Source: Candidatus Nomurabacteria bacterium
Lineage (GTDB): Bacteria > Patescibacteriota > Patescibacteriia > HK-STAS-PATE-3
Length of the DNA stretch: 64,000 nt
Reading direction: 5' to 3'
Assembly: GCA_023898465.1 (NCBI GenBank)
Contig: CP060223.1
Coordinates: forward strand, 224,001-288,000
In this document: positions 15,593 to 37,993 of the stretch, in pieces
How the letters are laid out: each line of letters opens with the position of its first letter
Position numbering within the stretch: position 1 is the first letter of the stretch
Position numbers and translations under genes: made by a program
Notes under the pieces: generated by a model
What the model was told of the DNA's origin: nothing
Seen by the model: only the letters and a program-made list of their open reading frames with translations
Database searches by the model: none

Positions 15593-15619
15593 ATAGACGT
15601 GCTTACACAGGAGGGAGTC

Positions 15620-21961: not shown

Positions 21962-22069
21962 GTTTTTGGATAAAAGACTGCTAAAAACTTAATTTGGCTA
22001 ATATTAGCAAAATTTATTTTATCTTGAAAAACTAGGCCTAAACCCTTGCCAGGACAAAACAAGCCTGCT

Positions 22070-22098
22070 ATACTCGCCAGTGCATTCTGTCAAAGAAT
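22070..22098 (+). promoter_or_regulatory. putative sigma70 promoter (TTGCCA-17-TATACT) followed by the palindrome gcattctgtcaaagaatgc upstream of tuf
   Basis: Both hexamers and the spacing are seen in the sequence. A perfect inverted repeat lies 8 nt downstream. Confidence 0.4.
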
Positions 22099-22144
22099 GC
22101 GCCAATAATCATTGAATTTAATTGCAAATTAATCTCTAGAGAAC

Positions 22145-23329
22145 ATGGCAGAAAATTTTGAACGCTCGAAACCTCACAAGAACGTCGGTACTATTGGTCA
22201 CGTAGACCATGGTAAGACGACTTTAACTGCAGCAATCCTGAAGACATTGACTGACGCTGGTATGAAAGCGTCCAATCGTTCTGTCGATGAGATTGATAGC
22301 GCGCCTGAAGAAAAGGCACGCGGTATTACTATTGCTACTGCGCACGTTGAGTATGAGACTGAAAAGTATCACTATGCGCACGTTGACTGTCCTGGTCACG
22401 CTGACTATGTGAAAAACATGATCACCGGTGCCGCACAGATGGACGGTGCTATCTTGGTGGTGTCAGCAACTGACGGTCCTATGCCTCAGACTCGCGAACA
22501 CATTCTCTTGGCCTACCAGGTTGGTGTGCCAAAGATTGTCGTTTTCTTGAACAAAATTGACCAAGTCCAAGACCAAGAGCTTATTGAATTGGTTGAAGTT
22601 GAAATTCGCGATCTCTTGAAGAAGTACGAATATCCTGGCGATGAAGTGCCGATTATTCGCGGTTCAGCTTTGAAGGCCTTAGAAGGCGACGAAGAAGCTA
22701 AGAAATCCATCATGGAGCTTATGAAGGCTGTTGATGAGTATATTCCTGAGCCTGTTCGTGAAACAGAAAAGTCCTTCCTCATGCCTGTAGAAGATATCTT
22801 CTCCATTGAAGGTCGTGGTACCGTGGTTACCGGTCGTATTGAGAGCGGTATCATCAAGGTAAACGAAGAAGTTGAAATCGTCGGTATCCGAGACACCCAG
22901 AAGACTGTGGTGACCGGAGTAGAAATGTTCAACAAGACTTTGGACGAAGGTCGCGCTGGCGATAACGCCGGTCTCTTGATCCGCGGTTTGAAAAAGGAAG
23001 ATGTGGAGCGCGGACAAGTCTTGGCCAAGCCGGGTACTATCACCCCGCACACTGAATTTGAATGTGAAGTCTATATCTTAACCAAGGATGAAGGTGGTCG
23101 ACACACTCCATTCTTCAAGGGATATAAACCACAGTTCTACATTCGTACGACTGATGTGACCGGTGAAGTGATTCTTCCAGAAAACACTGAAATGGTTATG
23201 CCTGGCGACACCGTCAACATCAAGGTTACTCTCCAGAGTCCGATTGCCTTAACCGAGCAGCAGCGCTTCGCCATCCGCGAAGGCGGCCACACGGTCGGCG
23301 CCGGAGTCGTCACTAAGATTCTTAAGTAA
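22145..23329 (+). CDS. tuf: elongation factor Tu
   Basis: [15 protein letters not shown] and NKxD motifs. Length 394 aa. Confidence 0.97.
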
Positions 23330-23336
23330 GTGCTTA

Positions 23337-23385
23337 TCCGCCTCTCCTCACGGGACACCCAAGGACACGAGGCGGATTTGTAAAG
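23337..23385 (+). terminator. terminator/attenuator hairpin between tuf and rpsJ (atccgcctc...gaggcggat + TTTG)
   Basis: A 9-bp GC-rich inverted repeat with a short T-run. It is likely a partial terminator that allows read-through into the S10 operon. Confidence 0.5.
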
Positions 23386-23407
23386 CGATTCGATCATTCA
23401 ATCCACA

Positions 23408-23761
23408 ATGGCTGACAAGGAACACAAGGAAGCACCGAACAACGAAAGCGAAGCGCCATCGCAGCGTATTCGCATCAAGATTCGTGCATACGATCACAAG
23501 ATTGTAGACCAGTCGACTCGGACGATTATTGAAACTGCGCAGAAGTCTGGTGCAGCGGTAAAAGGACCAGTTCCTTTACCAACTGAGAAGACAAAGTACA
23601 CCGTACTGAAATCTTCCTTTGTGCATAAGAATGCTCGAGATCAATATGAAATGCGAGTGCACAAGCGCTTGCTGGACATTGTTGATCCGACACCAAAGAC
23701 TGTTGATGCATTGATGAGTTTGAGTCTACCAGCCGGTGTCGATATCGAAATTAAGATGTAA
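23408..23761 (+). CDS. rpsJ: 30S ribosomal protein S10 (with short N-terminal extension)
   Basis: [12 protein letters not shown]...[12 protein letters not shown]...[10 protein letters not shown] is the S10 core. Confidence 0.9.
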
Positions 23762-23990
23762 GTATGTCGATTGGTCAGTATATCTTACTTAATTTGCTGC
23801 CACTGATCGATTACCTTAAGTCTCTGTTTACTTAACACCTCGGTAATTGCGTTCTCGGGATGACAAGACTCGTAACGGTATAGCGTTAATCCCTAGATAA
23901 CCTTTTGCCAGCAAGCATCTCACCAACCGTGGTCATCAGGCCTCGTTCGGAAGTGATTGTCTGGCCTTCACGGTATTTTTGTGCAAGTGT

Positions 23991-24806
23991 ATGAAATTCA
24001 TTCTCGGTAAAAAACTTGGCATGTCTCAGCGCTTTCGACCTGACGGTACGAGAGTGTCAGTCACCCACGTGCAAGCCACTCCAATGGTTGTCACGCAGGT
24101 AAAGACAGCGGAAAAAGACGGCTATACTGCCGTCCAGCTTGGTATGACTGGCAAGCGTAATCTATCCAAGCCAGTTCAGCAGCACCTGAAGGATTTACCA
24201 CAAGTTGCCGAGCTGCATGAATTTCGCATGGACGACACTGCTAAATTCGAACGCGGTCAAACCTATACTGTACAGACTTTCACGCCAGGCGATGCCGTAA
24301 AGGTAACTGGAATTTCCAAAGGTAAAGGTTTCGCCGGTGTGGTAAAGCGTCATGGATTCGGCGGTAGTCCTAAAACACACGGTCATAAAGATCAACTTCG
24401 CATGCCTGGTTCCATTGGTGCAACAGACGCACAACGCGTTATGAAAGGTAAGCGCATGGCTGGTCGCATGGGCGCCGAACAAGTAACTATTCGCAATCTT
24501 GAAATCGTTGACATTGATGCCGAACATAATGAGCTCCTTATTTCCGGAGCAGTGCCTGGCGCGCGTCATGGATTGTTAATCATCACTGCTGAAGGAGATA
24601 TGCCTGAGCCAGTCCAAGAGCAAAAGCAGGAAGCTCCAGCAGAAGAGGTAAACAAGGTTGAGGAAGTTGCCAAGCCAGAAAATCCTGAAACTGAAGTAAA
24701 GGCAGAAGCGAGTGACGAAAAAACCGAAACCCCAGCAGCTGAAGTAACTCCAGAAAAGGCTGAAGAGAAAACTGAGGAAAATACCGAAGCGAAAAAGGAA
24801 GCCTAG
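23991..24806 (+). CDS. rplC: 50S ribosomal protein L3 with about 70-aa acidic/Lys-rich C-terminal tail
   Basis: MKFILGKKLGMSQ... is the L3 core. The C-terminal EAPAEEVNKVEEVAKPENPETEVKAEASDEKTET... tail is low complexity. I chose ATG 23991; the track ORF starts at 23979. Confidence 0.9.
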   Translation: MKFILGKKLGMSQRFRPDGTRVSVTHVQATPMVVTQVKTAEKDGYTAVQLGMTGKRNLSKPVQQHLKDLPQVAELHEFRMDDTAKFERGQTYTVQTFTPGDAVKVTGISKGKGFAGVVKRHGFGGSPKTHGHKDQLRMPGSIGATDAQRVMKGKRMAGRMGAEQVTIRNLEIVDIDAEHNELLISGAVPGARHGLLIITAEGDMPEPVQEQKQEAPAEEVNKVEEVAKPENPETEVKAEASDEKTETPAAEVTPEKAEEKTEENTEAKKEA

Positions 24807-24808
24807 GT

Positions 24809-25159
24809 ATGAAGAAACGGGGGCAGACCTATAACAAGCTAGTCCGCGATCTCATCCCCGAGATTATCGCCGAAGACGGTTATCACGCTGAGATCAGGGT
24901 GCTCGATGAAGTAGAGTATCTCAAAGCCCTTCGAGAAAAACTTTTCGAAGAAGCTAAAGAACTTGCCGAGGCTCCTGATGTCACCGCGATAACCAATGAA
25001 CTCATTGATCTTTATGAAGTGCTCGCCGCCTTTGAAAAGGCCTATGGACTCCGTCACAGCGAAGTGATCGAGCTCCAGGAAAAGAAGCGAGCTGAGCGCG
25101 GTGGATTCAAGAAACGCCTCTTCCTAGTTCGCACAGAGCTGGATGAGGATGAAGAATAA
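24809..25159 (+). CDS. all-alpha NTP pyrophosphohydrolase (MazG/HisE superfamily, COG4997-like) inserted in the S10 operon
   Basis: YNKLVRDLIPEII...EEAKELAEA...ELIDLYEVLAA...KKRAERGGFKKRLFL matches the small 'house-cleaning' NTP-PPase family (YNKLVRDRIPEII ... KK.ERGGF). Confidence 0.75.
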   Translation: MKKRGQTYNKLVRDLIPEIIAEDGYHAEIRVLDEVEYLKALREKLFEEAKELAEAPDVTAITNELIDLYEVLAAFEKAYGLRHSEVIELQEKKRAERGGFKKRLFLVRTELDEDEE

Positions 25160-25163
25160 TTTC

Positions 25164-25802
25164 ATGGAAAAAGTACAGACAACAATTCATGGTAAAGACG
25201 GCGCAGCTGCCGGAAATCTCGACCTCGACCCTTCAGTTTTCGGGATTGAGTGGAACGACGGATTAATCTATCAGGTCGTTCGCGTGCAGCAGCTTAATCG
25301 TCGACAGCCAGTGGCTCATACCAAAACTCGCGCAGAGGTGAGTGGTGGTGGTAAGAAGCCATGGCGTCAAAAAGGTACCGGTCGAGCCCGTCATGGTTCG
25401 ATTCGCTCGCCAATTTGGGTCGGTGGTGGTGTAGCCTTTGGTCCGCGCAATACTCGCGTGTATGCCTTAAAGGTGAACACCAAGGCCCGTCGTAAAGCGA
25501 TTCGTATGGCCTTGAGCGCCAAGTTACAGCACGATCAGATGTATGTGATTGATGATTTGCAGCTTGATCCAATGAAGACAAAGACCTTAGCTGACCTACT
25601 GAAGACGCATAAGTTAAAGAAGGTAACTCTGGTTCCTCCACAGCATATGCCTGAGCTGCGACGTATCGCAAAGAATATGCCTAATGTAAATGTTATCCGA
25701 GCTGACAGCTTAAATACCGTTGACATTCTGAACTCCAGCGTGTTATTGATGCCGAAGCAATCAGTCGAGGTAATTGAAAAAACTTTTCGTCCAAAAGAGT
25801 AA
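25164..25802 (+). CDS. rplD: 50S ribosomal protein L4
   Basis: GGGKKPWRQKGTGRARHGSIRSPIWVGGGVAFGP is the L4 core. Start chosen at ATG 25164, just after the upstream stop. Confidence 0.9.
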   Translation: MEKVQTTIHGKDGAAAGNLDLDPSVFGIEWNDGLIYQVVRVQQLNRRQPVAHTKTRAEVSGGGKKPWRQKGTGRARHGSIRSPIWVGGGVAFGPRNTRVYALKVNTKARRKAIRMALSAKLQHDQMYVIDDLQLDPMKTKTLADLLKTHKLKKVTLVPPQHMPELRRIAKNMPNVNVIRADSLNTVDILNSSVLLMPKQSVEVIEKTFRPKE

Positions 25803-25808
25803 TCCATC

Positions 25809-26330
25809 ATGGGAATTTTTGACCGCTTCACTCAGAAGCAAGACAAGAAAACACTGCAGGAAAAAGCCTCTCGTTCTGAGCGTCAGAAGGAGACAGTGAA
25901 GGCTGCAGCCAAGCGAGCTGAGGAAGAAAAGAAAAAGTCTTTTCAGTCAGTCCCGGCAGCTGGTAAAAAATCTGAAGTAAAGGAAGAGAAGAAGGAAGTG
26001 GAAAAGACAAGTGCAGCTGCACCGGTCAAAGCTAAGAAGACTGACACTGCGGCAGCTGATACTGTGCTGGTAAGGCCGATTATTACTGAAAAAGCCGGAT
26101 ATCTCAGCGCTAAGCATCAATACATTTTCGAGGTGCATCCTCAAGCAAATAAGATCATGATTCAGAAGGCGATTGAAGCAAATTATGGCGTACGGCCAAT
26201 CCGGGTAAATATTATCACGGTAGCTGGTCGAGAAGTTCGTTACGGACGCACCACTGGCCGCACAAATTTCTGGAAAAAAGCAATTGTGACATTACCAAAA
26301 GATAAGACTATTGACGTGTACGAGGTCTAA
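25809..26330 (+). CDS. rplW: 50S ribosomal protein L23 with about 80-aa Lys/Glu-rich N-terminal extension
   Basis: C-terminal core VLVRPIITEKA...FEVHPQANKIMIQKAIE. The N-terminal KE-rich extension is low complexity. Confidence 0.85.
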   Translation: MGIFDRFTQKQDKKTLQEKASRSERQKETVKAAAKRAEEEKKKSFQSVPAAGKKSEVKEEKKEVEKTSAAAPVKAKKTDTAAADTVLVRPIITEKAGYLSAKHQYIFEVHPQANKIMIQKAIEANYGVRPIRVNIITVAGREVRYGRTTGRTNFWKKAIVTLPKDKTIDVYEV

Positions 26331-26332
26331 GT

Positions 26333-27172
26333 ATGGCATTGAAGAAATACAAGCCAACCACACCTGGACGACGAGCCTCCTCAGTCGTCGATACCTCGTA
26401 TCTGACAAAGAAGCGTCCAGAGAAAAAGTTAATCTTCCGAGTGAAGAAGACGGGCGGACGTAACAGTCAGGGTAAAATTACTGTGCGTCACCGCGGCGGT
26501 GGCGAAAAGCGATTTTATCGCATGGTAGATTTTTTGCAGAATCGCTATGACGATGCAGCAAGCGTCATCGCGCTTGAGTATGATCCAAACCGCAGCGCTC
26601 ACATTGCATTGATCGAATTCCCTGATAAAGAGCGACGTTATATTCTCGCTCCACAAGGTTTGCAAGTTGGCGATACAGTTACTTCAGCTAAAGAGAAGAC
26701 TGCCATCCAAACCGGTAATCGCATGCCGATCGAGTTTATTCCAACTGGACTTTTCCTTCACAATATTGAATTGAAGCCGGGTGCAGGTGGGAAGCTTGTT
26801 CGTTCAGCTGGTATGCAGGCGAGCCTCATGGCCATCGATGGTGACTATGCGCAGATTAAGATGCCATCAGGTGAAGTACGAAAGTTTTCTAAAAAAGTGC
26901 ACGCGTCCATCGGTCAAATTGGAAATGTTGATCACGGTAATGTCCGCATTGGTAAGGCCGGTCGCGTACGCCGCATGGGTTTCCGTCCATCAGTTCGTGG
27001 TAAGGCCATGAACCCAGTTGATCACCCACACGGTGGTGGAGAAGGAAATCAGCCAATTGGTTTGAAGCATCCGAAGACCCCATGGGGCAAACCAGCCCTT
27101 GGCGTCCGTACTCGACGTCGTAAAGCGAGTGATGCATTGATTCTTCAACGTCGTAAAACTAAGAAGAGGTAA
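26333..27172 (+). CDS. rplB: 50S ribosomal protein L2
   Basis: Conserved L2 sequence (GRNSQGKITVRHRGGG...HPHGGGEG). Confidence 0.95.
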   Translation: MALKKYKPTTPGRRASSVVDTSYLTKKRPEKKLIFRVKKTGGRNSQGKITVRHRGGGEKRFYRMVDFLQNRYDDAASVIALEYDPNRSAHIALIEFPDKERRYILAPQGLQVGDTVTSAKEKTAIQTGNRMPIEFIPTGLFLHNIELKPGAGGKLVRSAGMQASLMAIDGDYAQIKMPSGEVRKFSKKVHASIGQIGNVDHGNVRIGKAGRVRRMGFRPSVRGKAMNPVDHPHGGGEGNQPIGLKHPKTPWGKPALGVRTRRRKASDALILQRRKTKKR

Positions 27173-27175
27173 GCT

Positions 27176-27511
27176 ATGTCACGAAGTCTAAAAAAAGGAC
27201 CATGGACTGACCCAAAGCTTCTCAAAAAGCTGGAGAAGTTTAAGAAGGGCGATCGCACGGTTATCAAAACTTGGTCACGCGATTCAGTTATTACGCCTGA
27301 AATGGTTGGATTCACCTTCGGTGTGCACAATGGCAAAGATCATATTTCAGTATTCGTGGTAGAAAATATGGTAGGACATCGCTTAGGTGAATTCTCCCCA
27401 TCACGTAAATTTGTTCGACACGGTGGACGTATGCAAAAAGAGGCTGAGCAAGCCGCTGCTGCAGCTCAGAAAAAGCAGACTGAGGCAGCTCAAACACCCG
27501 CCAAAAAATAA
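27176..27511 (+). CDS. rpsS: 30S ribosomal protein S19 (C-terminal Ala/Gln-rich tail)
   Basis: [10 protein letters not shown]...[11 protein letters not shown]. Confidence 0.9.
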
Positions 27512-27516
27512 TAACT

Positions 27517-28020
27517 ATGGAATTTCGAGCTCACATTTCTTATTTGCGCATTGCCCCTCGTAAGGTTCGCTTAGTAGCCGGACTCTTGCGTGGTAAGCGT
27601 GTCGATCAAGCGCTGCACCAGCTGCAGATTCTTCGTAAGGGTTCTACTAGCCCCTTACGCAAACTCTTGCTCTCGGCAGTAGCAAATGCAGCAAAGCAAG
27701 ATAAAAAGGCTGAAGATTTGTATGTTGCCACATTAGTGGTAAACGAAGGACCTCGCTTAAAGCGTTACCGCCCACGAGCCTTTGGTCGAGCTGCAGTTAT
27801 TCTGAAACGATCTTCTCACATCACCCTTACCTTGACAGATCAGCAAAAGGGTGGCAAAAAGAGCAAGTTATCTGCAAAAGAAGAAGCAAAGTCTGCTGAA
27901 GCGACTGAAGTGAAGAAAGAAGAGAAAAAGGCAGAGACAAGTAAAGCTGCGGCCCCTAAAAAGACTGCAACAAAGAAAGCTACTACTTCAACGGTAAAAA
28001 AGCCTCGCGCTAAGAAATAG
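27517..28020 (+). CDS. rplV: 50S ribosomal protein L22 (C-terminal Lys/Ala-rich tail)
   Basis: L22 core plus a KKSKLSAKEEAKSAEATEVKKEEKKAETSKAAAPKK tail. Confidence 0.9.
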   Translation: MEFRAHISYLRIAPRKVRLVAGLLRGKRVDQALHQLQILRKGSTSPLRKLLLSAVANAAKQDKKAEDLYVATLVVNEGPRLKRYRPRAFGRAAVILKRSSHITLTLTDQQKGGKKSKLSAKEEAKSAEATEVKKEEKKAETSKAAAPKKTATKKATTSTVKKPRAKK

Positions 28021-28021
28021 T

Positions 28022-28705
28022 ATGGGACAAAAAGTTCATCCAATTGGTTTTCGACTGGGTATTAATCGGAATTGGAATTCCCGATGGTTCTCAGCTCGTG
28101 CATATCGCGAATATCTGAAGCAGGATGTAAACATTCGTAAGCACATTACGAATAAGCTGAAAAATTCAGGTATTTCTCGCATCGACATCGAGCGTTCATC
28201 CGGCAGTATGACTGTCACCATTCATACCTCTAAGCCTGGCTTAGTGATCGGTCGTGGTGGCGCTGCTAGCGAAGAGTTGCGCGTTGAGATCCGCCGAAAA
28301 TTCATCCGAGACCCAAAGCTCCAACTGAAGTTGAGCATTCAAGAAATTACCCGCCCGGAAGTTGATGCAAATATCGTTGTCCAAAACGTTATTGAGCAAT
28401 TAGAAAAGCGTATGCCTTTCCGCCGCGTATTAAAGACCACGATTGAGTCAGTCAAGCGCGCAGGTGCTGAAGGTGTTAAAGTCATGGTAGCAGGTCGCCT
28501 CAACGGCGCAGAAATTGCTCGAACAGAATACTTAACCTGGGGCAAACTTCCTCTGCAAACCATTCGCGCGAACATTGATTACAGTCGCGGTGTGGCTCGA
28601 ACTATTTACGGCGCAATTGGCGTAAAGGTCTGGATTTATAAGGGTGAAGTCTTTGCTAAAGAGCAGGGCAATACTGAAGAAGAGCCTCTTGGAACGGTTC
28701 TCTAA
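28022..28705 (+). CDS. rpsC: 30S ribosomal protein S3
   Basis: MGQKVHPIGFRLG... KH domain. Confidence 0.95.
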   Translation: MGQKVHPIGFRLGINRNWNSRWFSARAYREYLKQDVNIRKHITNKLKNSGISRIDIERSSGSMTVTIHTSKPGLVIGRGGAASEELRVEIRRKFIRDPKLQLKLSIQEITRPEVDANIVVQNVIEQLEKRMPFRRVLKTTIESVKRAGAEGVKVMVAGRLNGAEIARTEYLTWGKLPLQTIRANIDYSRGVARTIYGAIGVKVWIYKGEVFAKEQGNTEEEPLGTVL

Positions 28706-28720
28706 GCCAACAATTTTTCT

Positions 28721-29137
28721 ATGTTAACTCCACGTAAAGTAAAGCATCGTAAATGGCATCGCGGCCGAGTCCGCGGTAAAGCGCAGCGCAAAATCGCGTT
28801 GAGCTTCGGCCAATACGGCATCAAGGCGCAGAGCTCGGCTTGGATGACAGCTCGTCAAATTGAAGCAGCCCGCCGTGCCATCACTCGTTTTATGCAAAAA
28901 GGTGGTAAAGTCTGGATTCGCATTTTCCCTGATAAGCCAGTGACGATTAAAGGTAATGAAATCCGCATGGGTGGAGGTAAAGGTTCAGTTGATCACTATG
29001 TTGCCGTAGTGAAGCCAGGTACAGTACTCTTTGAGATCAGCGGTGTTGATCGCGATACGGCAAAAGAAGCACTTCGGCTCGCTTCCTACAAGCTGCCGGT
29101 GCAAACACGATTTATTGAAAAAGTACACGTCGCATGA
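28721..29137 (+). CDS. rplP: 50S ribosomal protein L16
   Basis: [11 protein letters not shown]...[16 protein letters not shown]. Confidence 0.95.
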
Positions 29138-29340
29138 AACAGCAGGAATTACAAAATAAGACTGCGGCTGAGCTACAAAAAATTCTGGCTGAGAAGCGAG
29201 CTGAGTTGCGTGAATTACGTTTCAAGGTTGCGAATGGTCAGCTCAAAGACGTGCGTGATGTACGAACAGTCCGTAAGACTATTGCCCGTGTGCTGACTAT
29301 GTTGCACACTATGAAGTCAAAAGCAACGTCAAACTCCTAA
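29134..29340 (+). CDS. rpmC: 50S ribosomal protein L29
   Basis: 68 aa, KTAAELQKILAEKRAELRELRFK. Position in operon. Confidence 0.85.
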   Translation: MKQQELQNKTAAELQKILAEKRAELRELRFKVANGQLKDVRDVRTVRKTIARVLTMLHTMKSKATSNS

Positions 29341-29344
29341 TTTT

Positions 29345-29608
29345 ATGAACGAAGCATCATCAAAAAAAGTGCAGCAACGAACCCTGGAAGGTACTGTCGT
29401 ATCAACCAGCATGGATAAAACGCTTGTGGTTCGAGTAGAGCGCACAAAGCTCCATCCTAAATACGACAAGCGCTATATCACCACAAAGAAATTCTTGGTG
29501 CATGATCCAAAAAATAGCCATAAAGTCGGTGATAAAGTGCGCTTTGTTGCTTCACGTCCGATTTCCAAGCGGAAGCGATGGCTGGTTGTTGAGGAGAAAA
29601 GCTCATGA
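29345..29608 (+). CDS. rpsQ: 30S ribosomal protein S17
   Basis: [18 protein letters not shown]...HPKYDKRY. Confidence 0.9.
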
Positions 29609-29976
29609 TTCAACCTCGCACACTTCTCGTATTAGCTGATAACTCCGGCGCCCGCCGACTCCGCTGCATTAAAGTGCTTGGTGGTTACAAGAAGCGTTAT
29701 GCTCGCTTAGGCGATATCATCACTGCTTCAGTCATTGAAGCAACTCCGCACTCAGCAGTGAAGAAGGGTGAAGTCGTCCACGCGGTTATCGTACGCACTC
29801 GTAAAGAAACATTGCGCAAGGACGGATCCACTATTCGATTTGACGATAATGCCGCGGTATTAGTTGATCAAAAGAGTAAAGAACCTCGTGCCACTCGTAT
29901 TTTCGGACCAATTGGCCGTGAAATTAAGCAGCTGGGATTTGCAAAGATCGCATCTCTCGCTCCTGAAGTTTTGTAA
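29605..29976 (+). CDS. rplN: 50S ribosomal protein L14
   Basis: [17 protein letters not shown]... conserved. Confidence 0.95.
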
Positions 29977-29981
29977 AACGT

Positions 29982-30290
29982 ATGTATATCAAGAAAGGCG
30001 ACAACGTGCAGATGACCACCGGTAAAGACCGGGGAAAAAAGGGTAAAGTCACCCAAGTTTTTCCTAGTGACCAGCGGGTTGTGGTGGAAGGCTTGAATAA
30101 GATGAGTAAGAATGTCCGTGCACGAAACGCAAATGAAAAAGGCCAAGTCGTTGCCTTTGACGCGCCAGTACATATTTCTAATGTTATGTTGCTTTGCCCA
30201 AAGTGTGGTAAGACCACTCGGGTAGCCTATCATGTGGCTGATGACAAAAAGTCTCGCCAGTGCCGTAAATGTAAAGAAGCTTTTGCTTAA
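29982..30290 (+). CDS. rplX: 50S ribosomal protein L24 with C-terminal C4 zinc-ribbon
   Basis: KOW motif IKKGDNVQMTTGKDRGKKGKV, then CPKCG...CRKC at the C-terminus. Confidence 0.85.
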   Translation: MYIKKGDNVQMTTGKDRGKKGKVTQVFPSDQRVVVEGLNKMSKNVRARNANEKGQVVAFDAPVHISNVMLLCPKCGKTTRVAYHVADDKKSRQCRKCKEAFA

Positions 30291-30296
30291 ATCTCT

Positions 30297-30842
30297 ATGA
30301 CTCGGATTCGTGAACGATATGTAAAGGAAGTTGTTCCAGAGCTCAAAAAAGAGTTTGGATACACCAATGACCTTTCAGTGCCTCGATTGGAAAAAATCGT
30401 GGTAAACGTGGGCGTTGGTCGATCGCTCAAGGATCCGAAGCATATCGAGTTTGTCACGAAGGCACTTGAGCGGATCACTGGTCAGAAGCCATCTCCACGC
30501 AAGGCTCGTCTCTCCATTTCTGGATTCAAGATTCGCAAAGGCATGGTGGTTGGTCTGACTGTTACACTGCGCGGCACACGTATGGATGAATTCTTTGACC
30601 GCTTAGTAAATATCAGCCTGCCACGTGTACGTGACTTCCAAGGCTTAGACGAAAAATCTTTTGGTCAATCTGGCAATTATTCACTTGGATTAAAAGAGCA
30701 CACTGTTTTCCCAGAAACGCAATCAGATGACATTGATCAAACCTTTGGACTCGAAATTACTATTGTAACGACCGCCAAGAATGCGGCCGAAGGGAAAGCA
30801 CTCTTAACTCACTTGGGTTTCCCATTCAAGAAAGACGAGTAG
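30297..30842 (+). CDS. rplE: 50S ribosomal protein L5
   Basis: Conserved L5 sequence. Confidence 0.95.
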
Positions 30843-30843
30843 T

Positions 30844-31038
30844 ATGGCTAAAGAATCTCAAATCGCAAAGAGTCGTAAGAACAGCAAAAAGGCGAAGTAT
30901 TCAACCCGAATTGTTCGCCGATGCTGGCGCTGTGGTCGCAAACGCGGATACATGCGTAAGTTTGATCTCTGTCGTATTTGTTTCCGTGAGTTAGCCACCC
31001 GAGGTGAGATTCCGGGTGTGAAAAAGTCTTCCTGGTAA
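30844..31038 (+). CDS. rpsZ: 30S ribosomal protein S14, zinc-binding type Z
   Basis: 64 aa with [20 protein letters not shown] (C4 zinc site). Confidence 0.9.
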
Positions 31039-31049
31039 TACCATTTCCT

Positions 31050-31442
31050 ATGAGCATGTCTGACCCAATTTCCGACTTCCTTACTCGACTGCGCAATGCC
31101 GTTTTGGCAGGCCAGTGGCAGCTTGAATCACCATATTCAAAGTTGAAGCTTGCGATACTCGATATCCTCAAGCAGGAAGGTTATGTGGAATCATATAGCA
31201 CCGATGAAGGTCGTGGCGTGGTGACTATCATGCTGCAAAAGGCTGAGAACGGTCATCCAGTACTTCGTTCAATTCGTCGGGTCAGTCGACCTGGACACCG
31301 TATCTATGTGAAGCGTCAAAGTTTGCCACGCGTGGTCAATGATTATGGTATCGCAATTGTCTCTACTTCACAGGGAGTGATGACAAATCGAGAAGCGCGT
31401 AAGCGTTCCCTAGGCGGCGAAGTTATTTGTGAGGTTTCCTAA
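31050..31442 (+). CDS. rpsH: 30S ribosomal protein S8
   Basis: MSMSDPISDFLTRLRNA... conserved. Confidence 0.95.
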   Translation: MSMSDPISDFLTRLRNAVLAGQWQLESPYSKLKLAILDILKQEGYVESYSTDEGRGVVTIMLQKAENGHPVLRSIRRVSRPGHRIYVKRQSLPRVVNDYGIAIVSTSQGVMTNREARKRSLGGEVICEVS

Positions 31443-31450
31443 TATTTCCT

Positions 31451-31996
31451 ATGTCACGTATTGGTAAATTACCCATTGCAATCCCTGACGGCGTAACCGT
31501 AACACTCACTCCTGAGCTGATCACGGTGAAGGGTCCGAAAGGTGAATTACAGCAAGCCCTGCTTGCCAAGGTGCAGGTTACCCAAGAAAACGGTGCAGTG
31601 CAGGTTTCAGTGAAAGATCCTAATGAAAAGCAGCAACGTTCACTTTGGGGCTTATATCAGCGTCTAATTTCCAATATGATTATTGGAGTGACCAAGGGCT
31701 TTACGAAGCAATTGGAAATCAACGGTGTGGGATATCAAGCTGTCATGAAGGGTAAGAATTTGGTGCTGTCAGTTGGATTTTCTCACCCGGTAGAATTTCC
31801 TATTCCAGATGATTTAATTGCCACTGCCGAAAAGAACCAAATTACTATTAGCGGATCTGATAAACAGCGAGTGGGCGAGATAGCCGCGCAGATTCGTCGC
31901 ATCCGTAAGCCAGAACCATATAAAGGTAAGGGTATTAAATACTCTGATGAAATTATCCGCCGTAAGGCCGGTAAACAAGCCAAGGCTGGCGCATAA
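31451..31996 (+). CDS. rplF: 50S ribosomal protein L6
   Basis: MSRIGKLPIAIPDGVTV... Confidence 0.95.
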   Translation: MSRIGKLPIAIPDGVTVTLTPELITVKGPKGELQQALLAKVQVTQENGAVQVSVKDPNEKQQRSLWGLYQRLISNMIIGVTKGFTKQLEINGVGYQAVMKGKNLVLSVGFSHPVEFPIPDDLIATAEKNQITISGSDKQRVGEIAAQIRRIRKPEPYKGKGIKYSDEIIRRKAGKQAKAGA

Positions 31997-32005
31997 GGTA
32001 TAGTT

Positions 32006-32365
32006 ATGAGCACACATTTAATGCACAAACAAGCAAAATTACAGCGACGAAAGCGCCGAGTTCGCGCGCGAGTTTCTGGCACTGCTGAACGACCTCGTTT
32101 AAGCGTCAGCCGCAGCGTGAAACACGTGCTTGTTCAGTTAATTGATGACACTACGCATCGCACACTTTTAACTATGACTGATCGTGGAGCAAAAGATATC
32201 ACCGGTACGAAGACCGAACGAGCTCGCGAATTAGGAAAGCGTTTTGCCAAGGCCGCCCAAGAAAAGGGTCTTACCCAAGCAGTTTTTGATCGAGGCGGAC
32301 GACTTTATCACGGCCGTGTCCAAGCAATCGCTGAAGGCGCCCGAGAAGCCGGACTTAAATTATAA
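32006..32365 (+). CDS. rplR: 50S ribosomal protein L18
   Basis: RLSVSRS.KH...QLIDD... L18 core. Confidence 0.9.
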   Translation: MSTHLMHKQAKLQRRKRRVRARVSGTAERPRLSVSRSVKHVLVQLIDDTTHRTLLTMTDRGAKDITGTKTERARELGKRFAKAAQEKGLTQAVFDRGGRLYHGRVQAIAEGAREAGLKL

Positions 32366-32369
32366 GACT

Positions 32370-32885
32370 ATGAGCAATCAGCAACGACGATCTCGACGAG
32401 ATGTAGAACAAAAAGACCGCGAATTTGAGCAGCGGGTTGTAGAAATTAGTCGTGTTACCCGTGTGGTAGCCGGCGGTAAGCGCATGCGATTTCGTGCTAC
32501 GGTTGTGTTGGGTGATGCCAAGGGTCGGGTTGGTTACGGTACTCGGAAAGGTCTCGATGTCAGTGGTGCAGTCAGTAAGGCTTCTGCGGCAGCGCGTAAA
32601 ACCATGATGCGAGTTCCGATGCAAGAGACTACCATTCCTCATGAAGTAAATACGCATTACGGTGCCGCTCATGTGCTTTTGAAGCCAGCTCCAGCCGGTC
32701 GTGGTGTTATTGCTGGTGGTGCGGTCCGCATTGTCATGGAATTAGCAGGCGTTAAGGATGTGGTGGCAAAAATGTTTGGCTCACGTAATAAATTGAACAA
32801 CATTAAGGCTACGTTCCGTGCCTTAGAGCAACTCCGTCCACCAAAGCCAAAGAAGACGGAAGAGAAGGAGAAGTCACATGACTAA
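32370..32885 (+). CDS. rpsE: 30S ribosomal protein S5
   Basis: The internal ATG at 32370 (MSNQQRR...) gives a 171-aa S5 (RVVEISRVTRVVAGGKRMRFRA...). The longer track ORF starts at 32244 and overlaps L18. rplO follows directly, with no rpmD (L30). Confidence 0.9.
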   Translation: MSNQQRRSRRDVEQKDREFEQRVVEISRVTRVVAGGKRMRFRATVVLGDAKGRVGYGTRKGLDVSGAVSKASAAARKTMMRVPMQETTIPHEVNTHYGAAHVLLKPAPAGRGVIAGGAVRIVMELAGVKDVVAKMFGSRNKLNNIKATFRALEQLRPPKPKKTEEKEKSHD

Positions 32886-33357
32886 AGGTTTGCACACACT
32901 TCGCCAACCAAAAGGTGCTAAGTCTGGCAAGCGACGAGGTCGCGGTCATGGCAGCGGTTTAGGTACCTATTCCGGACGCGGTATGAAGGGTCAGCGAGCT
33001 CGTACTGGTGGACGCCAAGGAACCCTGCGACGTACCATGAAGCAGTTGATTGCTCGCATACCAAAGACGCGAGGTTTTTCCAGCGGCAAAAAAGCAGCAA
33101 CTGAAGTATACCTCAGTCAGCTCAATGTTTTTCCTGAGGGCAGTGAAGTATATCCTGGCTTATTGAAGAAACAGGGGATTATTCAGAGTGATCGACTCGT
33201 GAAGGTGATCGGCAACGCTGGATTGGAAAAAAGGCTTGATGTGAAGGCACATCGCTTTTCTGAAGGTGCTCGACGTGCTATAACTGAAAAAGGTGGCAAA
33301 GTTGTTCTCCTTCCTTTACCAATCGGTCCGCAACCAAAGCGACATCAAAGCTCATAG
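32878..33357 (+). CDS. rplO: 50S ribosomal protein L15
   Basis: Gly/Arg-rich N-terminus GKRRGRGHGSG...GRGMKGQ. Confidence 0.9.
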   Translation: MTKGLHTLRQPKGAKSGKRRGRGHGSGLGTYSGRGMKGQRARTGGRQGTLRRTMKQLIARIPKTRGFSSGKKAATEVYLSQLNVFPEGSEVYPGLLKKQGIIQSDRLVKVIGNAGLEKRLDVKAHRFSEGARRAITEKGGKVVLLPLPIGPQPKRHQSS

Positions 33358-33360
33358 CCC

Positions 33361-34638
33361 ATGTGGGAAAAAATCTCACTCATCTGGCGAATTCCTGAAA
33401 TACGAAAAAAGATTCTGATTGTACTCGGACTCTTAGTTGTTTTTCGTGTCGCCGCACACATTCCAATTCCTGGCGTGAACACCTCTGAGTTGCAGAGTTT
33501 TTTTAATTCAAACCAATTCCTCGGACTCCTCAATATTTTTTCTGGAGGAGCCTTAGAGAATTTCTCCATTGTCATGTTGGGCGTAGGTCCATACATTACA
33601 GCTTCAATTATTTTCCAATTGTTGGTGATGATTATCCCTCGCTTAGAAGAGTTGCAAAAAGAAGGCGAGCGTGGACAGCAAAAAATCAACCAATGGACGC
33701 GTCTGCTTACTGTGCCGCTGGCCGTGTTGCAGGGCTATGCCACTATTACTTTTTTGAAACAGCAGCAGGGTGCCCAACTCATTGGCACACTCAGTAGCTT
33801 TGATCTCGTTGTTGCGCTTGTTACCGTTACTGCTGGTACTATTTTCTTAATGTGGATTGGTGAATTGATTTCTGAGCAGAAAGTAGGCAACGGTATTTCC
33901 TTACTTATTTTTGCCGGTATTGTTGCGCAAATTCCATTACAAATTCAACAACTCGCTGCCACCTTTGATGCAACCCAGATACTCAATGTTGGTGTCTTTG
34001 TCCTCATTGGACTTATCACCATCGCTGGGGTGGTCTATGTGACTGAAGCGCAACGAAACATTCCGGTGTCCTACGCTCGCCGCATTCGTGGTAATCGTAT
34101 GTTTGGTGGCGTCAATACCCATTTGCCTTTGCGCGTGAACCAGGCTGGTGTGATTCCAATCATCTTCGCAGTTTCGCTTGTGCTTTTTCCATCCTTGATT
34201 GCGCAGTTTTTTGTGAATTCAACTAATGCTACGGTGGCGGGTATTGCGCAATGGGTGACAACCGCTTTTCAAGGTGGATGGCTCTATGGCACTCTTTATT
34301 TCATCCTCGTGTTTGCCTTTACCTACTTCTACACCTCAGTAGTTTTCCATCCCAATCAGGTTGCAGAGAATTTGCAGAAGCAAGGCGGCTTTATTCCCGG
34401 CATCCGGCCTGGTCGACATACCGAAGAGTACCTAGGCTATGTTTCTAATCGCATCATTTTAGCCGGTGCGCTTTTCCTAGGTATCGTGGCAGTATTACCA
34501 ATTGCCCTCCAATCAGCCGCTCCATCTCAATCCCTCGTGATTGGTGGCACTAGCTTGCTGATTGTGGTAAGCGTGGTCATCGAAACCGTGCGACAAATTG
34601 AGTCCCAGTTGATTGTCCGGGACTACGAAGGATTTTAA
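33361..34638 (+). CDS. secY: preprotein translocase subunit SecY
   Basis: 10-TM protein of 425 aa with conserved SecY segments (GxxPYITASII, QxxxGxxP). Confidence 0.95.
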   Translation: MWEKISLIWRIPEIRKKILIVLGLLVVFRVAAHIPIPGVNTSELQSFFNSNQFLGLLNIFSGGALENFSIVMLGVGPYITASIIFQLLVMIIPRLEELQKEGERGQQKINQWTRLLTVPLAVLQGYATITFLKQQQGAQLIGTLSSFDLVVALVTVTAGTIFLMWIGELISEQKVGNGISLLIFAGIVAQIPLQIQQLAATFDATQILNVGVFVLIGLITIAGVVYVTEAQRNIPVSYARRIRGNRMFGGVNTHLPLRVNQAGVIPIIFAVSLVLFPSLIAQFFVNSTNATVAGIAQWVTTAFQGGWLYGTLYFILVFAFTYFYTSVVFHPNQVAENLQKQGGFIPGIRPGRHTEEYLGYVSNRIILAGALFLGIVAVLPIALQSAAPSQSLVIGGTSLLIVVSVVIETVRQIESQLIVRDYEGF

Positions 34639-34646
34639 CTACGCCT

Positions 34647-35246
34647 ATGGACACTACTTCAACGAGTGCGTCGTCTGAGCAGTCGAGTGCTTTGCATATT
34701 ATCATTTTAGGGCCGCAAGGTTCTGGCAAGGGCACCCAGGCTGAGGTGTTGGCGCAAAAGTATAACCTTTTTCACTTAGAAACAGGTAAATTAATGCGAG
34801 CAGCTGCTCAGGAAGAGAGCGACTTAGGTCGTCAGGTGAATGAATACATCAACGTGAAGGGAGAACTTGTGCCCTTCGATATTGTGATGGAAATTTTCCG
34901 GCGAGAAGTTGAACGTGTACCGCTCACTCAAGGAATTGTTTTTGATGGTACACCACGGCGAATGCCAGAAGTGGCATATTGGGATAAAGAGCTGCCCAAG
35001 TTGGGCCGGCGATTTACGCACATCTTTTCGCTGAGTTTATCCGAAGAGAAAACCATGGAGCGACTCATGCTGCGGAAACGAGAAGACGATACTGAGGAAA
35101 CTATTCGCAAGCGCTTGGATGAATACTATCGACAAACTGCTCCAGTATTAGCGCACTATAAAGAGGCAGGGGAGTTGATTGAAATTAACGGCGATCAAAG
35201 TATTGAAGAGGTATTTCGCGACCTTGAAAAGCATTTTCAAGTATGA
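34647..35246 (+). CDS. adk: adenylate kinase (short form without zinc lid)
   Basis: P-loop GPQGSGKGTQ. Follows secY. Confidence 0.9.
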   Translation: MDTTSTSASSEQSSALHIIILGPQGSGKGTQAEVLAQKYNLFHLETGKLMRAAAQEESDLGRQVNEYINVKGELVPFDIVMEIFRREVERVPLTQGIVFDGTPRRMPEVAYWDKELPKLGRRFTHIFSLSLSEEKTMERLMLRKREDDTEETIRKRLDEYYRQTAPVLAHYKEAGELIEINGDQSIEEVFRDLEKHFQV

Positions 35247-36016
35247 GTCAATTGAAGCAGCCAAATGAAATAAAGAAAATGGCTGCGTCTGGTCGTCAGC
35301 TGGCTGAGATATTAGACGAAGTCAAAAAGCATGTGCGGGTTGGGATAAGCACAGGCGAGCTTGATCGGATTGCCGCAAAACTGATGCAAGATGCCGGCGT
35401 GAAGCCAGCCTTCTTGGGATATCGCGGTTACCCCGGCGTATTGTGTACCTCACGCAATGAACAGGTGGTGCATGGAATTCCTTCAAACGATGAAATATTA
35501 CAGAACGGTGACTTACTGAGTATCGATATCGGCATAGTGAAAGAAGGTTGGTATGCTGACATGGCTGAAACGGTCGCAGTTGGGAACATAAGCTATGCGG
35601 CAGAGCGTTTAATGAGTACCACTCGCGAAGCGCTGCAACGTGGTATTGCCGCTTTAAAAATCGGTGAGCCATTAGGCAGGGTTGGTGCTGCGGTACAGAG
35701 CTTTAGCGAATCGCGTGGTTACGGAGTTGTGCGAGATCTTTGCGGACACGGCATTGGCCGAGCTATGCACGAGGATCCCATGGTGCCGAACTACGGTAGT
35801 GCGGAGAGTGGTCCTATTGTGCAGCCGGGTCTAGTTATTGCGATTGAGCCAATGATCACGGCAGGAAAATGGCAGGTAAAAACTTTAGCCGATGGATGGA
35901 CAGTGGTCACTGCCGATGGAGGCTTAAGCGCCCATTTTGAAAAAACAGTAGCGGTGACCGAACACGGTGTGGAGATATTAACCGGACTCAGCCATGGCAA
36001 GAATTCTCGCGCTTGA
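35243..36016 (+). CDS. map: methionine aminopeptidase type I
   Basis: MetAP fold motifs (HGIP...D...D...H...E...E). Follows adk. Confidence 0.95.
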   Translation: MSQLKQPNEIKKMAASGRQLAEILDEVKKHVRVGISTGELDRIAAKLMQDAGVKPAFLGYRGYPGVLCTSRNEQVVHGIPSNDEILQNGDLLSIDIGIVKEGWYADMAETVAVGNISYAAERLMSTTREALQRGIAALKIGEPLGRVGAAVQSFSESRGYGVVRDLCGHGIGRAMHEDPMVPNYGSAESGPIVQPGLVIAIEPMITAGKWQVKTLADGWTVVTADGGLSAHFEKTVAVTEHGVEILTGLSHGKNSRA

Positions 36017-36398
36017 TCTAGGTAAACAAAAGACCGGTCTTGCTTTATCAGACCCTGATCAGCGCTGGGCCTTTGGACGTGGTATCGTCAAGGGCAGTAT
36101 TGAAGATGTAGTAAAGGCGATTACTGACATTCGGACTACTGATGAGATTGAGCGCGTGGTAATTGGCTTACCGCTTTCTCTGCAAGGTACGGGTATAGGG
36201 GAGCAAGAGCAGTGGGTCCGCGAACAGGCTGAAAAGATTCGCCAAGGTGTGCAATTGCCCGTAGAGTTTATGGAAGAACGTTTTAGCAGCGAGATGGGGA
36301 GGCGTTTGCAGCAAGAGGCGGGCAAAAAAGGGGACGATGATGAGGCGGCAGCGAAAATTATTTTGCAGTCTTATTTAGATCAGCGTTTTCGCACATGA
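35994..36398 (+). CDS. ruvX: Holliday-junction-resolvase-like / pre-16S rRNA nuclease YqgF (RuvX)
   Basis: MARILALDLGKQKTGLALSD is the YqgF/RNase H-like fold N-terminus. Confidence 0.85.
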   Translation: MARILALDLGKQKTGLALSDPDQRWAFGRGIVKGSIEDVVKAITDIRTTDEIERVVIGLPLSLQGTGIGEQEQWVREQAEKIRQGVQLPVEFMEERFSSEMGRRLQQEAGKKGDDDEAAAKIILQSYLDQRFRT

Positions 36399-37495
36399 GT
36401 TTTTGGCTTGTCAACGGTATTTTTTTCCTAAGCAGTTTTGTGCTGGCTGCCTTGAGCACGCCGCTTTTTCGCCGGATCGCATATCGATTTCATTTACTTG
36501 ACACCCCGGCCAGCGCACCAGAACGAAAACTGCAGACTCAGCCAATTCCTTTACTTGGAGGTTGGGCGATTTTCTTTTCCTTTACCATGGTTATTCTTTT
36601 GGGTGCGTGGCTCGGCTGGTTTCAGGATGGAGTCATAAGCGCAAAAGCCTTGTATGGTGTGCTCCTCGGTGGTGGACTCATTATGGTTGGCGGTACAATA
36701 GATGATAAGTGGGGAGTAGGCCCGGCTAAGCAACTTATTTGGTCCTTCCTCGCTTGTGCTATTGTTGTGGTTTCAGGAATTGGCATCAGCTTCATTACCA
36801 ATCCATTTGGGGGTGAGTTACGCTTAGACACGCTTTCCTGGTCCGTGTTCACCATGAATGATATTTCTTATCAATTTGTGGTGTGGGCTGATCTGCTCAC
36901 TTTAGCTTGGCTCATGGGCATGATGTATACGACCAAGCTGCTTGATGGTTTAGATGGACTAGTGTCCGGAGTTGGTGCAATTGCCAGCCTTATTCTTTTT
37001 GGCGTCACCCAACTGCAAGATGTGCAGCAAGCGACCACGGGATATATTGCGCTCGCGCTGGCCGGGGCTTGTCTGGGTTTCCTTATATATAATTTTTCGC
37101 CAGCGAAGATATATTTGGGACAAGGTGGAAGTTTGCTTATCGGATTTTTCTTAGGTGTGCTTTCCATCGTGAGTGGAGGAAAAATTGCTACCGCACTTCT
37201 GGTGATGGGGATTCCGATACTGGATGTGGCGTGGGTGATTCTTCGTCGAGTGATTATCGAAAAGCGTTCGCCGCTCTCGGCAGATCGTAAGCATTTGCAT
37301 TTTCGTTTACTCGATGTTGGCTTTAGTCATCGCGGCGCCGTTCTTTTTCTCTATCTGCTCACAGCATTATTCGGTAGTGCGACATTATTCTTCCGAGGAG
37401 TGGCCAAGCTATACGCGCTCGGAGCGCTTCTCTTGGTTATGTGTGCCTTGGGTATCTGGCTCGTACGTCGATATCAAGGTTTCAATAAATCGTAG
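36395..37495 (+). CDS. glycosyltransferase family 4 polyprenyl-phosphate sugar-1-phosphate transferase (MraY/WecA family)
   Basis: 10-11 TM protein with LLDGLDGL and the conserved MraY/WecA cytoplasmic loops. It is not in a dcw context, so WecA/TagO-like is more likely than MraY. Confidence 0.75.
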   Translation: MSFWLVNGIFFLSSFVLAALSTPLFRRIAYRFHLLDTPASAPERKLQTQPIPLLGGWAIFFSFTMVILLGAWLGWFQDGVISAKALYGVLLGGGLIMVGGTIDDKWGVGPAKQLIWSFLACAIVVVSGIGISFITNPFGGELRLDTLSWSVFTMNDISYQFVVWADLLTLAWLMGMMYTTKLLDGLDGLVSGVGAIASLILFGVTQLQDVQQATTGYIALALAGACLGFLIYNFSPAKIYLGQGGSLLIGFFLGVLSIVSGGKIATALLVMGIPILDVAWVILRRVIIEKRSPLSADRKHLHFRLLDVGFSHRGAVLFLYLLTALFGSATLFFRGVAKLYALGALLLVMCALGIWLVRRYQGFNKS

Positions 37496-37498: not shown

Positions 37499-37993
37499 AT
37501 GCAGCGACGTTTTTTCATTGGCCTCATTGTCGTGCTGCTAGGGCTGGCGGCCGGCATAGTTTGGTGGCTTTGGTTCGCGCCAGTGAGCACAAGCGGTACG
37601 CCGACGAGTGGCGATGGTCAGGCAAAGCTGACTATTCATGAACATGAGTTCCTTGTTGATCTAGCTATTCGATCAGAAACGCAAGCTACTGGCTTAGCCT
37701 ATCGTGATGATTTGGCGAGTGACAGGGGAATGTTGTTCCTTTTTACCGAGCCGCAGAGATTGAGTTTTTGGATGAAAGGTATGCGTTTTCCTCTTGATAT
37801 TATTTGGATACGAGATCAGCGGGTCATCGCTATTAGCCCTGAGGTCCCGCTAGCGCCTCGACGGGGCATTTTGCCAACCTATGCACCAAAAAGCCCAGCC
37901 GATGCCGTGCTTGAGGTCAGAGCGGGATTAGCAAAAAACCTAGGAATTTCGGTCGGTGACACAGTTTCTTGGGAGATATTGACGTCAGAGTGA
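37499..37993 (+). CDS. DUF192 (COG1430) family protein with N-terminal membrane anchor
   Basis: FWMKGMRFPLDIIWIRDQRVIAI matches the DUF192 core. Confidence 0.65.
   Translation: MQRRFFIGLIVVLLGLAAGIVWWLWFAPVSTSGTPTSGDGQAKLTIHEHEFLVDLAIRSETQATGLAYRDDLASDRGMLFLFTEPQRLSFWMKGMRFPLDIIWIRDQRVIAISPEVPLAPRRGILPTYAPKSPADAVLEVRAGLAKNLGISVGDTVSWEILTSE

Follow-up and report, generated by a model that had tools for sequence, protein, structure and literature searches.

An L30-less, rearranged ribosomal protein gene supercluster encoding extended ribosomal proteins in a Patescibacteria bacterium, with a candidate RNA leader upstream of rplC

The 64-kb stretch of contig CP060223.1 analysed here in full (hereafter the window), from a Candidatus Nomurabacteria bacterium, carries on its plus strand a long cluster of ribosomal protein genes in which rpsE (encoding uS5) runs into rplO (uL15) and the rpmD gene for L30 (uL30) is missing between them. 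The cluster opens with a part of the str operon, formed by rpsL, rpsG, fusA, an open reading frame (ORF) of 444 amino acids, tuf and rpsJ (17491-23761). A second run of genes, at 23991-36016, starts with rplC, an ORF of 116 amino acids, rplD, rplW, rplB, rpsS, rplV, rpsC, rplP, rpmC and rpsQ, and continues with rplN, rplX, rplE, rpsN, rpsH, rplF, rplR, rpsE, rplO, secY, adk and map. Within this second run, rplR (uL18, 32006-32365) was identified from its translation and from PF00861 on an identical Logan contig, and secY (33361-34638), adk (34647-35246) and map (35243-36016) from the Pfam families of contig L081, which is identical here: SecY, ADK and Peptidase_M24, respectively. The end of map is overlapped by ruvX (35994-36398; TIGR00250, 55 bits for a cutoff of 43), followed by a Glycos_transf_4 transferase of the MraY/WecA family (36395-37495, 366 amino acids), whose partial matches to WecA and MraY stay well below both equivalog cutoffs, by a DUF192 gene (37499-37993, PF02643) and by a solitary rplU (L21, 38017-38346, family match in a domain scan), all on the plus strand. 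Beyond rplU the strand switches, recR, ybaB and dnaB lying on the minus strand and converging with the cluster. From rplC to rplU, neighbouring genes overlap or stand a few bases apart; this tight packing is consistent with one long transcription unit.

The window was compared with the best 80 S5 loci, each of at most 20 kb, obtained from a scan of 185,579 species genomes (one per species). Absent genes were searched with tblastn using L30, IF1, L36, S13, S11, S4, RpoA, L17, L27 and L9 as queries, which were hand-typed E. coli or B. subtilis sequences. As positive controls, comparable to the queries in size and conservation, the E. coli S19, L14, L24, S17, L21 and L29 proteins all matched the window, plus 27 to 76 sources. 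Every statement of absence for the source genome refers to the 64 kb of the window. No ribosomal RNA (rRNA) gene was found in the window or in the related loci.

The rpsE gene extends from an ATG at 32370 to a TAA at 32885 (plus strand, 171 amino acids, PF00333 and PF03719), its start and stop being read from the sequence, and rplO from an ATG at 32878 to 33357 (plus strand, 159 amino acids, PF00828). The two genes share the 8 nt ATGACTAA at 32878-32885, and the junction, cacATGACTAAagg, shows this overlap directly. An earlier note on this DNA had claimed that rpmD is missing between rpsE and rplO, which overlap by 8 nt, and the reading of the junction confirms it: the overlap leaves no physical space for rpmD at its canonical site. 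Among the relatives, S5 directly adjoins L15 in all 76 with a call for both genes. Measured from the stop of S5 to the ATG of L15 in the 78 sequences with a callable L15 start, the spacing had a median of 7 nt and a maximum of 257 nt, and did not exceed 34 nt in 55 of them. The eight widest gaps were translated in six frames; they hold stop-riddled sequence only, with no ORF of L30 size, and a hidden L30 was thereby rejected. Likewise, tblastn found no L30 in the window, nor in the related loci (about 1.4 Mb), a lone match in the map/ruvX region (locus L025, E = 0.006) being taken as chance. The S5-L15 adjacency without L30 observed in the relatives agrees with the statement of Tsurumaki et al. 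2022 (bioRxiv 10.1101/2022.01.07.475337) that S5 and L15 are close neighbours in genomes of the Candidate Phyla Radiation (CPR).

Downstream of map, the genes ruvX, transferase, DUF192 and rplU fill the place expected for infA-rpmJ-rpsM-rpsK-rpsD-rpoA-rplQ. None of infA, rpmJ, rpsM, rpsK, rpsD, rpoA, rplQ, rpmA, rpmD and the L9 gene was detected by tblastn in the window, and Pfam scans of its remaining larger ORFs gave no further ribosomal proteins. Gene calls and controlled tblastn searches thus uphold two further claims of the earlier note, namely that the infA-to-rplQ block is replaced after secY-adk-map by ruvX, the transferase, DUF192 and rplU, and that rplU stands without rpmA, L27 being undetected in the window. 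In none of the 80 related loci did the same searches retrieve L9 or, within 10 kb, any gene of the alpha operon, IF1, L36 or L27. In the 67 loci that extend at least 4.5 kb past S5, Map was found in 47 and RuvX in 44, at most 200 nt from Map in 34; in the 64 that extend at least 6.5 kb, the transferase was found in 26, DUF192 in 18 and L21 in 24. No L27 followed L21 among the relatives (tblastn, with a median of 4 kb of sequence past L21). An independent Logan assembly (SRR12358676, 15,993 bp) encodes an identical SecY and has the same order as the window from S19 to DnaB. The recurring order and this independent assembly indicate a conserved synteny and neither an assembly break nor a trait of one organism. 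The operon had been described as truncated: the missing block is real, but a lineage-wide rearranged synteny is the better name, since the order recurs in relatives. The map-ruvX-transferase-DUF192-rplU order does not appear in the searched passages of Tsurumaki et al. 2022, the word 'operon' being absent from that paper. The break after map and the genes attached there, a synteny conserved across several candidate phyla, would therefore be a modest addition to what is in print.

Four proteins of the cluster carry extensions, whose limits were set outside the Pfam or NCBIfam domain ends and which were counted as conserved when at least 20 amino acids long in a relative. All four genes lie on the plus strand. 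The uL3 protein (gene 23991-24806), covered by TIGR03625 over residues 4-198, ends in an acidic E/A/K-rich tail of 65 amino acids (residues 207-271, 24609-24803). The uL23 protein (25809-26330) begins with a basic K/A/E-rich extension of 83 amino acids (residues 1-83, 25809-26057), PF00276 starting at residue 86. At their C-termini, uS19 (27176-27511) has an A/K/E/Q-rich tail of 23 amino acids (residues 89-111, 27440-27508) after PF00203, which ends at residue 82, and uL22 (27517-28020) a basic K/A-rich tail of 57 amino acids (residues 111-167, 27847-28017) after PF00237, which ends at residue 106. K/E/A-rich extensions on L3, L23, L22 and S19 had been announced beforehand and are indeed present, as seen from the domain limits and from the share of K, E and A, which is 53-70% in each. 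As a common character, however, the description holds for the composition and not for the charge: the net charges are -12 (uL3), +9 (uL23), +13 (uL22) and +1 (uS19), so that the strongly acidic L3 tail differs from the basic L22 and L23 extensions. The idea of lineage-specific tails stands for uL22 (68/73 relatives), uS19 (60/70) and uL23 (63/65), in which they are clade-wide, but not for uL3, whose tail reaches 20 amino acids in only 22 of 63 relatives and is thus a sub-clade feature. At the ribosome surface, the basic extensions of uL22 and uL23, like the Ala-rich tail of uS19, probably serve as decorations in contact with rRNA or with adjacent proteins; binding to rRNA is unlikely for the acidic tail of uL3.

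We considered whether these extensions could be artefacts of ORF definition, due to wrong starts or read-through, and be absent from the mature proteins. N-terminal extensions do hinge on the predicted start codon, a caution also voiced by Tsurumaki et al. 2022. An artefact is nevertheless very improbable. The tails end 1-6 nt before the next gene, which argues that they are coding, and the L23 ORF starts 6 nt past the L4 stop; were its extension removed, an unusually long non-coding gap would be left in a packed operon. Of about 70 relatives, 60-68 share the extensions of uS19, uL22 and uL23. Moreover, the uL23 extension starts with the motif M-x-[ILFV]-[FLI]-[DNESK]-[RK] in 47 of 65 relatives (MGIFDRF in the window), and this conservation argues against a mis-called start. 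A conserved start of this kind argues for translation and selection of the extension, at a protein of the tunnel exit. Neither this start motif nor an acidic uL3 tail of a sub-clade is found in the searched passages of Tsurumaki et al. 2022, so that both would also add modestly to published knowledge.

With a probability of about 90%, we therefore read the window as containing an L30-less, rearranged and tail-bearing str plus S10-spc supercluster of a bacterium of the Patescibacteria (CPR, Parcubacteria group). The uL30 gene would have been lost in the lineage, rpsE running straight into rplO. The cluster ends after secY-adk-map, beyond which lie ruvX, the gene of a polyprenyl-phosphate sugar-phosphate transferase, DUF192 and rplU; rpmA and the block from infA to rplQ presumably have their place elsewhere in the genome. 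The extensions would be inherited at the level of the clade (uS19, uL22, uL23) or of the sub-clade (uL3). The large subunit would be assembled without uL30 into a working ribosome, as the published record and the conserved loss of the gene suggest. The tails would be functional, at the ribosome surface.

Several points weigh against this reading. L30 is short, and a control of comparable length, L29, was found in 29 sources only, which makes tblastn alone weak evidence for the absence of L30; for this reason the argument at the canonical site rests on the missing space between S5 and L15. Of the source genome, which measures about 1 Mb, the L30 search covered the 64-kb window. Many relatives are titled 'uncultured Gammaproteobacteria bacterium' or plain 'bacterium', and one 'Pirellulales'. 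Finally, the comparison of ribosomal proteins consists of identities among relatives.

The first two of these points bear on the possibility that rpmD has moved elsewhere in the genome and is not lost, which would fit with other ribosomal protein genes having clearly left the cluster. This is very improbable, because L30 was not found in 69 complete CPR genomes (Tsurumaki et al. 2022) or in the window and the related loci. The same paper cites Brown et al. 2015 for all CPR being without L30.

The affiliation was assessed independently of L30. The named S5 relatives, among the best 80 loci, are Candidatus Doudna-, Uhr-, Buchanan-, Kerfeld- and Komeilibacteria and 'Patescibacteria group' metagenome-assembled genomes (MAGs). 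On 16 concatenated ribosomal proteins (2,479 trimmed columns), identity was 67% and 66% with the two nearest MAGs and 58% with a Kerfeldbacteria MAG. The 116-amino-acid protein of the window is deposited at 100% identity as 'MAG: nucleoside triphosphate pyrophosphohydrolase [Candidatus Nomurabacteria bacterium]', on contigs as long as 1,082,586 bp, and the Nomurabacteria and Kerfeldbacteria labels both fall within the Patescibacteria/Parcubacteria group. Stop codons in the window are TAA (47), TAG (22) and TGA (17); since all three are used as stops, the genetic code is standard and the organism does not belong to a recoded CPR lineage. The loss of L30 had been taken to point to CPR. The affiliation is backed by these relatives, but the loss alone is not diagnostic, because L30 is also often lost outside CPR (Tsurumaki et al. 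2022). A non-CPR organism with an independent loss of L30 could be imagined on that ground and on that of the Gammaproteobacteria and Pirellulales titles. It is highly improbable: every close relative with a specific candidate-phylum label belongs to Patescibacteria, an identical protein is deposited under Candidatus Nomurabacteria, and the oddly titled records share the L30-less cluster, the synteny and 52-69% S5 identity, so that their titles would be placeholder labels. As the source is a MAG, faulty assembly or binning might also be suspected behind the truncated operon or the lack of rpmD, for instance a deletion or a chimera joined after map. This is practically negligible given the identical order in the independent Logan assembly from another run, the same joins in dozens of divergent genomes and a base composition that is even over 22-42 kb. 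The gene order thus marks the contig as Patescibacteria and as a faithful assembly.

Other proteins of the cluster depart from the usual forms in a different manner. The uL24 protein (gene 29982-30290, plus strand) contains a CxxC...CxxC pattern formed by Cys72, 75, 94 and 97 (30195-30272), inside PF17136 (residues 38-100). The earlier note had L24 ending in a C4 zinc ribbon; the four cysteines are there, but they belong to the normal PF17136 domain and not to an extension. An added tail was ruled out because the cysteines substitute residues inside the ordinary C-terminal domain, at positions where the L24 chains of Firmicutes have D/T and A/S, and the protein, with 102 amino acids, has a normal size (clade median 105). 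The pattern occurs in 46 of 75 relatives and is lost in the others, including the near relative L002. The uS14 protein has the short C4 form in all 76 relatives. Both uL24 and uS14 bear the cysteines and presumably bind zinc. The uS12 protein (rpsL, 17491-17907, plus strand) is a long form of 138 amino acids with an internal insertion otherwise seen in Firmicutes: it aligns end to end with Firmicute chains of 136-138 residues, and covers only 123 residues of Thermus and E. coli chains. Such a long S12 is found in almost all CPR according to Tsurumaki et al. 2022.

The ORF inserted between rplC and rplD (24809-25159, plus strand, 116 amino acids) was overlooked by the earlier note. Pfam and NCBIfam thresholds, PDB sequences and a single-sequence AlphaFold model (predicted local distance difference test score of 53) gave it no identity. 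A large protein search retrieved 456 homologues, many of which are named 'house-cleaning noncanonical NTP pyrophosphatase (MazG superfamily)' and some of which carry PF01503. By homology, this ORF is thus assigned to the MazG/PRA-PH all-alpha superfamily of nucleoside triphosphate (NTP) pyrophosphatases, an unusual cargo for an S10 operon. Among the loci, the insertion is confined to the window and to L001 and L002, the two relatives nearest to it.

A second element that had been overlooked is the spacer between rpsJ, whose stop lies at 23761, and rplC, whose ATG lies at 23991. This structured spacer measures 229 nt, and it is long clade-wide (median of 228 nt over 63 loci). It contains a conserved RNA motif of 77 nt (23843-23919, plus strand), delineated with RNAalifold and a covariance model and made of two helices, an internal loop and a variable hairpin. 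In the window, helix P0 is GUAAUU/UUUUGC and helix P1 is CUCGGGAU/AUCCCUAG. RNAalifold, run on 29 hand-collected spacers, gave an internal loop enclosed by the two helices, in which GUUC and GA.AAC are invariant. The covariance model was then used on the 1.47 Mb of window and loci and gave 34 matches, all on the gene strand and all in the rpsJ-rplC spacer. In these matches 89.8% of the cells were paired, versus 65% for shuffled and 33-50% for slid controls; compensatory changes were present in 13 of 15 pairs and the covariation score was 0.669 versus 0.215. A pattern scan of Joint Genome Institute metagenomes provided 64 stretches, of which 11 passed the covariance model (E <= 3e-12): ten lie between S10 and L3, and the last one near a contig end, where S10 is not visible and L3 follows. 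All 45 covariance-model matches (34 + 11) are therefore upstream of rplC. The structure of the motif and its fixed position are thus directly supported. Support for the structure comes from covariation and not from stability, the fold energy of the window leader alone being unremarkable (z of -0.22).

Downstream of the motif, the minimum free energy fold has a terminator-like hairpin (23926-23974, plus strand) followed by a U-run up to 23982 (UAUUUUUG), which ends 9 nt before the rplC ATG. A hairpin and U-run are present between the motif and rplC in 28 of the 34 motif-bearing spacers. A simple promoter and terminator scan of the leader gave no promoter, and the long hairpin was not among its calls. 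Pairing of the 3' flank of the motif with the 3' arm of the terminator would form an anti-terminator in about a third of the cases (z of -1.7 to -6.4); as a universal feature it is not supported overall (mean z of -0.70, p = 0.064). In spacers without the motif from Buchananbacteria-like loci (L006, L016, L017, L019, L024, L046, L066, L076 and L078), we observed a shared GGGAAAACCUCYAU followed by UUUGCCAGC...CUGGCUUUUUGAGGCAGAUUUUU, and these conserved words may represent a second leader variant.

Both loop words of the motif also occur in E. coli 23S rRNA at 797-817 (GGAGAUAGCUGGUUCUCC). Mimicry of rRNA is not claimed, since positions 812-817 pair with 1190-1195 in the 23S secondary structure. 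The invariant words GUUCU and GA.AAC also look like the two parts of a BoxA, the consensus of which is given as GYUCUUUAANA by Baniulyte et al.; this is a lead rather than a result.

We tentatively propose, somewhat short of even odds, that the spacer at 23843-23982 is an undescribed cis-regulatory RNA, widespread in the sampled Parcubacteria-group Patescibacteria, that would act as an attenuator of the operon of about 14 kb from rplC to rplU. Its novelty is suggested by two sources. In Rfam 15, three instances of the motif had no match at the gathering score or at E <= 10, bar chance matches to small nucleolar and small RNAs, and the survey of Eckert and Weinberg 2020 (PMC7247131) makes no mention of Parcubacteria or Patescibacteria. 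The ligand might be a ribosomal protein encoded by the operon; the analogy with E. coli suggests L4 or L3. Alternatively, it might be the NusB-S10 pair, because the loop resembles a split BoxA.

A serious competitor, though less likely than not, is that this RNA is merely the 3' end and terminator of the tuf-rpsJ transcript, or a BoxA-like NusB/S10 site, and not an autoregulatory leader bound by a ribosomal protein. Besides the BoxA-like loop words, this would account for the placement of the motif directly after the S10/NusE gene and for the terminator-like hairpin being also present in 22 of 29 spacers without the motif. However, the motif lies upstream of the hairpin, and the distance from the end of the hairpin to the ATG of rplC, 9 nt in the window and up to a few tens of nt elsewhere, leaves no room for a separate promoter and 5' untranslated region. 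Furthermore, the two helices covary strongly, which would be needless for a plain terminator or a linear BoxA. A regulatory RNA at this position, if true, would give a first handle on the control of ribosome synthesis in uncultured reduced bacteria and may outweigh the main finding on the supercluster.

Several features were noted elsewhere in the window. The ORF of 444 amino acids between fusA and tuf (20627-21961, plus strand) matches no Pfam family and has a faint similarity to TolB beta-propellers (E = 0.0025). A pilin or pseudopilin-like type IV gene cluster with the N_methyl motif, together with a prepilin-peptidase-like membrane protein, occupies 82-6034 (plus strand); such clusters appear to be common in CPR genomes. 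The G+C content peaks locally at 0.57 over 14001-16000, at a low-complexity Ala/Thr/Pro-rich ORF of 420 amino acids without a Pfam family (14254-15516). A nearly identical duplicate of about 160 nt, with two mismatches, is found at 43231-43391 and 46734-46894 (plus strand); it takes in the sequence upstream of two genes and the stretch encoding their lipoprotein-type signal peptide (MTWRFRLFLLMAIALTMTPLAFMTGCQELPTEG), the two proteins being different in all other respects and one of them an M23 peptidase. Finally, an island of low G+C content (0.33-0.36, versus about 0.47 elsewhere) extends over 48941-57785 (plus strand) and holds a run of similar multi-pass membrane ORFs of about 220-275 amino acids, of which two were scanned: one matches the stand-alone HisKA_7TM domain and the other has no family. 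The island also encodes a GNAT of the FeeM/autoinducer-synthase-like kind, along with a methyltransferase and a ThiF-family protein; a 7TM-GAF histidine kinase and a response regulator come next.

In E. coli, the leader of the S10 operon mediates both L4-dependent attenuation of transcription and translational repression. Like it, the spacer of the window combines a structured leader with a terminator-like hairpin just upstream of the L3-L4-L23-L2 block; unlike it, the motif lies downstream of rpsJ, has no match in Rfam 15 and shows an anti-terminator in about a third of its instances. A candidate L4 leader upstream of rplC, restricted to Archaeoglobi, was described by Eckert and Weinberg 2020; it resembles the present motif in being a candidate ribosomal protein leader upstream of rplC-rplD-rplW-rplB and differs from it in being archaeal. 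The MazG-superfamily gene between rplC and rplD sets the sub-lineage of the window apart from the other L30-less CPR clusters.

For the zinc-ribbon proteins, Makarova and colleagues reportedly distinguished cysteine-bearing from cysteine-less forms in 2001, and to our knowledge L24 is not in that classic list. The clade follows this scheme with a cysteine-bearing S14 (76/76) and a mixed L24 (46/75), zinc binding being a prediction.

In the canonical S10-spc-alpha supercluster of E. coli and B. subtilis, rpmD lies between rpsE and rplO, and infA-rpmJ-rpsM-rpsK-(rpsD)-rpoA-rplQ follow map. The window keeps the canonical order from rpsJ through rplC-rplD-rplW-rplB-rpsS-rplV-rpsC-rplP-rpmC-rpsQ-rplN-rplX-rplE-rpsN-rpsH-rplF-rplR-rpsE and then rplO-secY-adk-map. 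It differs by the lack of rpmD, by the lack of infA to rplQ after map, by the attachment of rplU without rpmA and by the 229-nt structured spacer that parts rpsJ from rplC.

Closest to the window is the CPR ribosome of Tsurumaki et al. 2022, who list S19, L22 and L23 among the enlarged proteins, with an N-terminal L23 region in part of CPR; the window shares these features and the long S12. The loss of L30, the S5-L15 adjacency and the enlarged S19, L22 and L23 being already published there, the core of our finding is known, and the window adds one genome to the well-documented slimmed but decorated CPR ribosome. The same paper puts L3 in a list separate from the CPR-enlarged proteins; unlike this CPR-wide picture, the acidic 65-amino-acid tail of uL3 in the window is a feature of its sub-clade.

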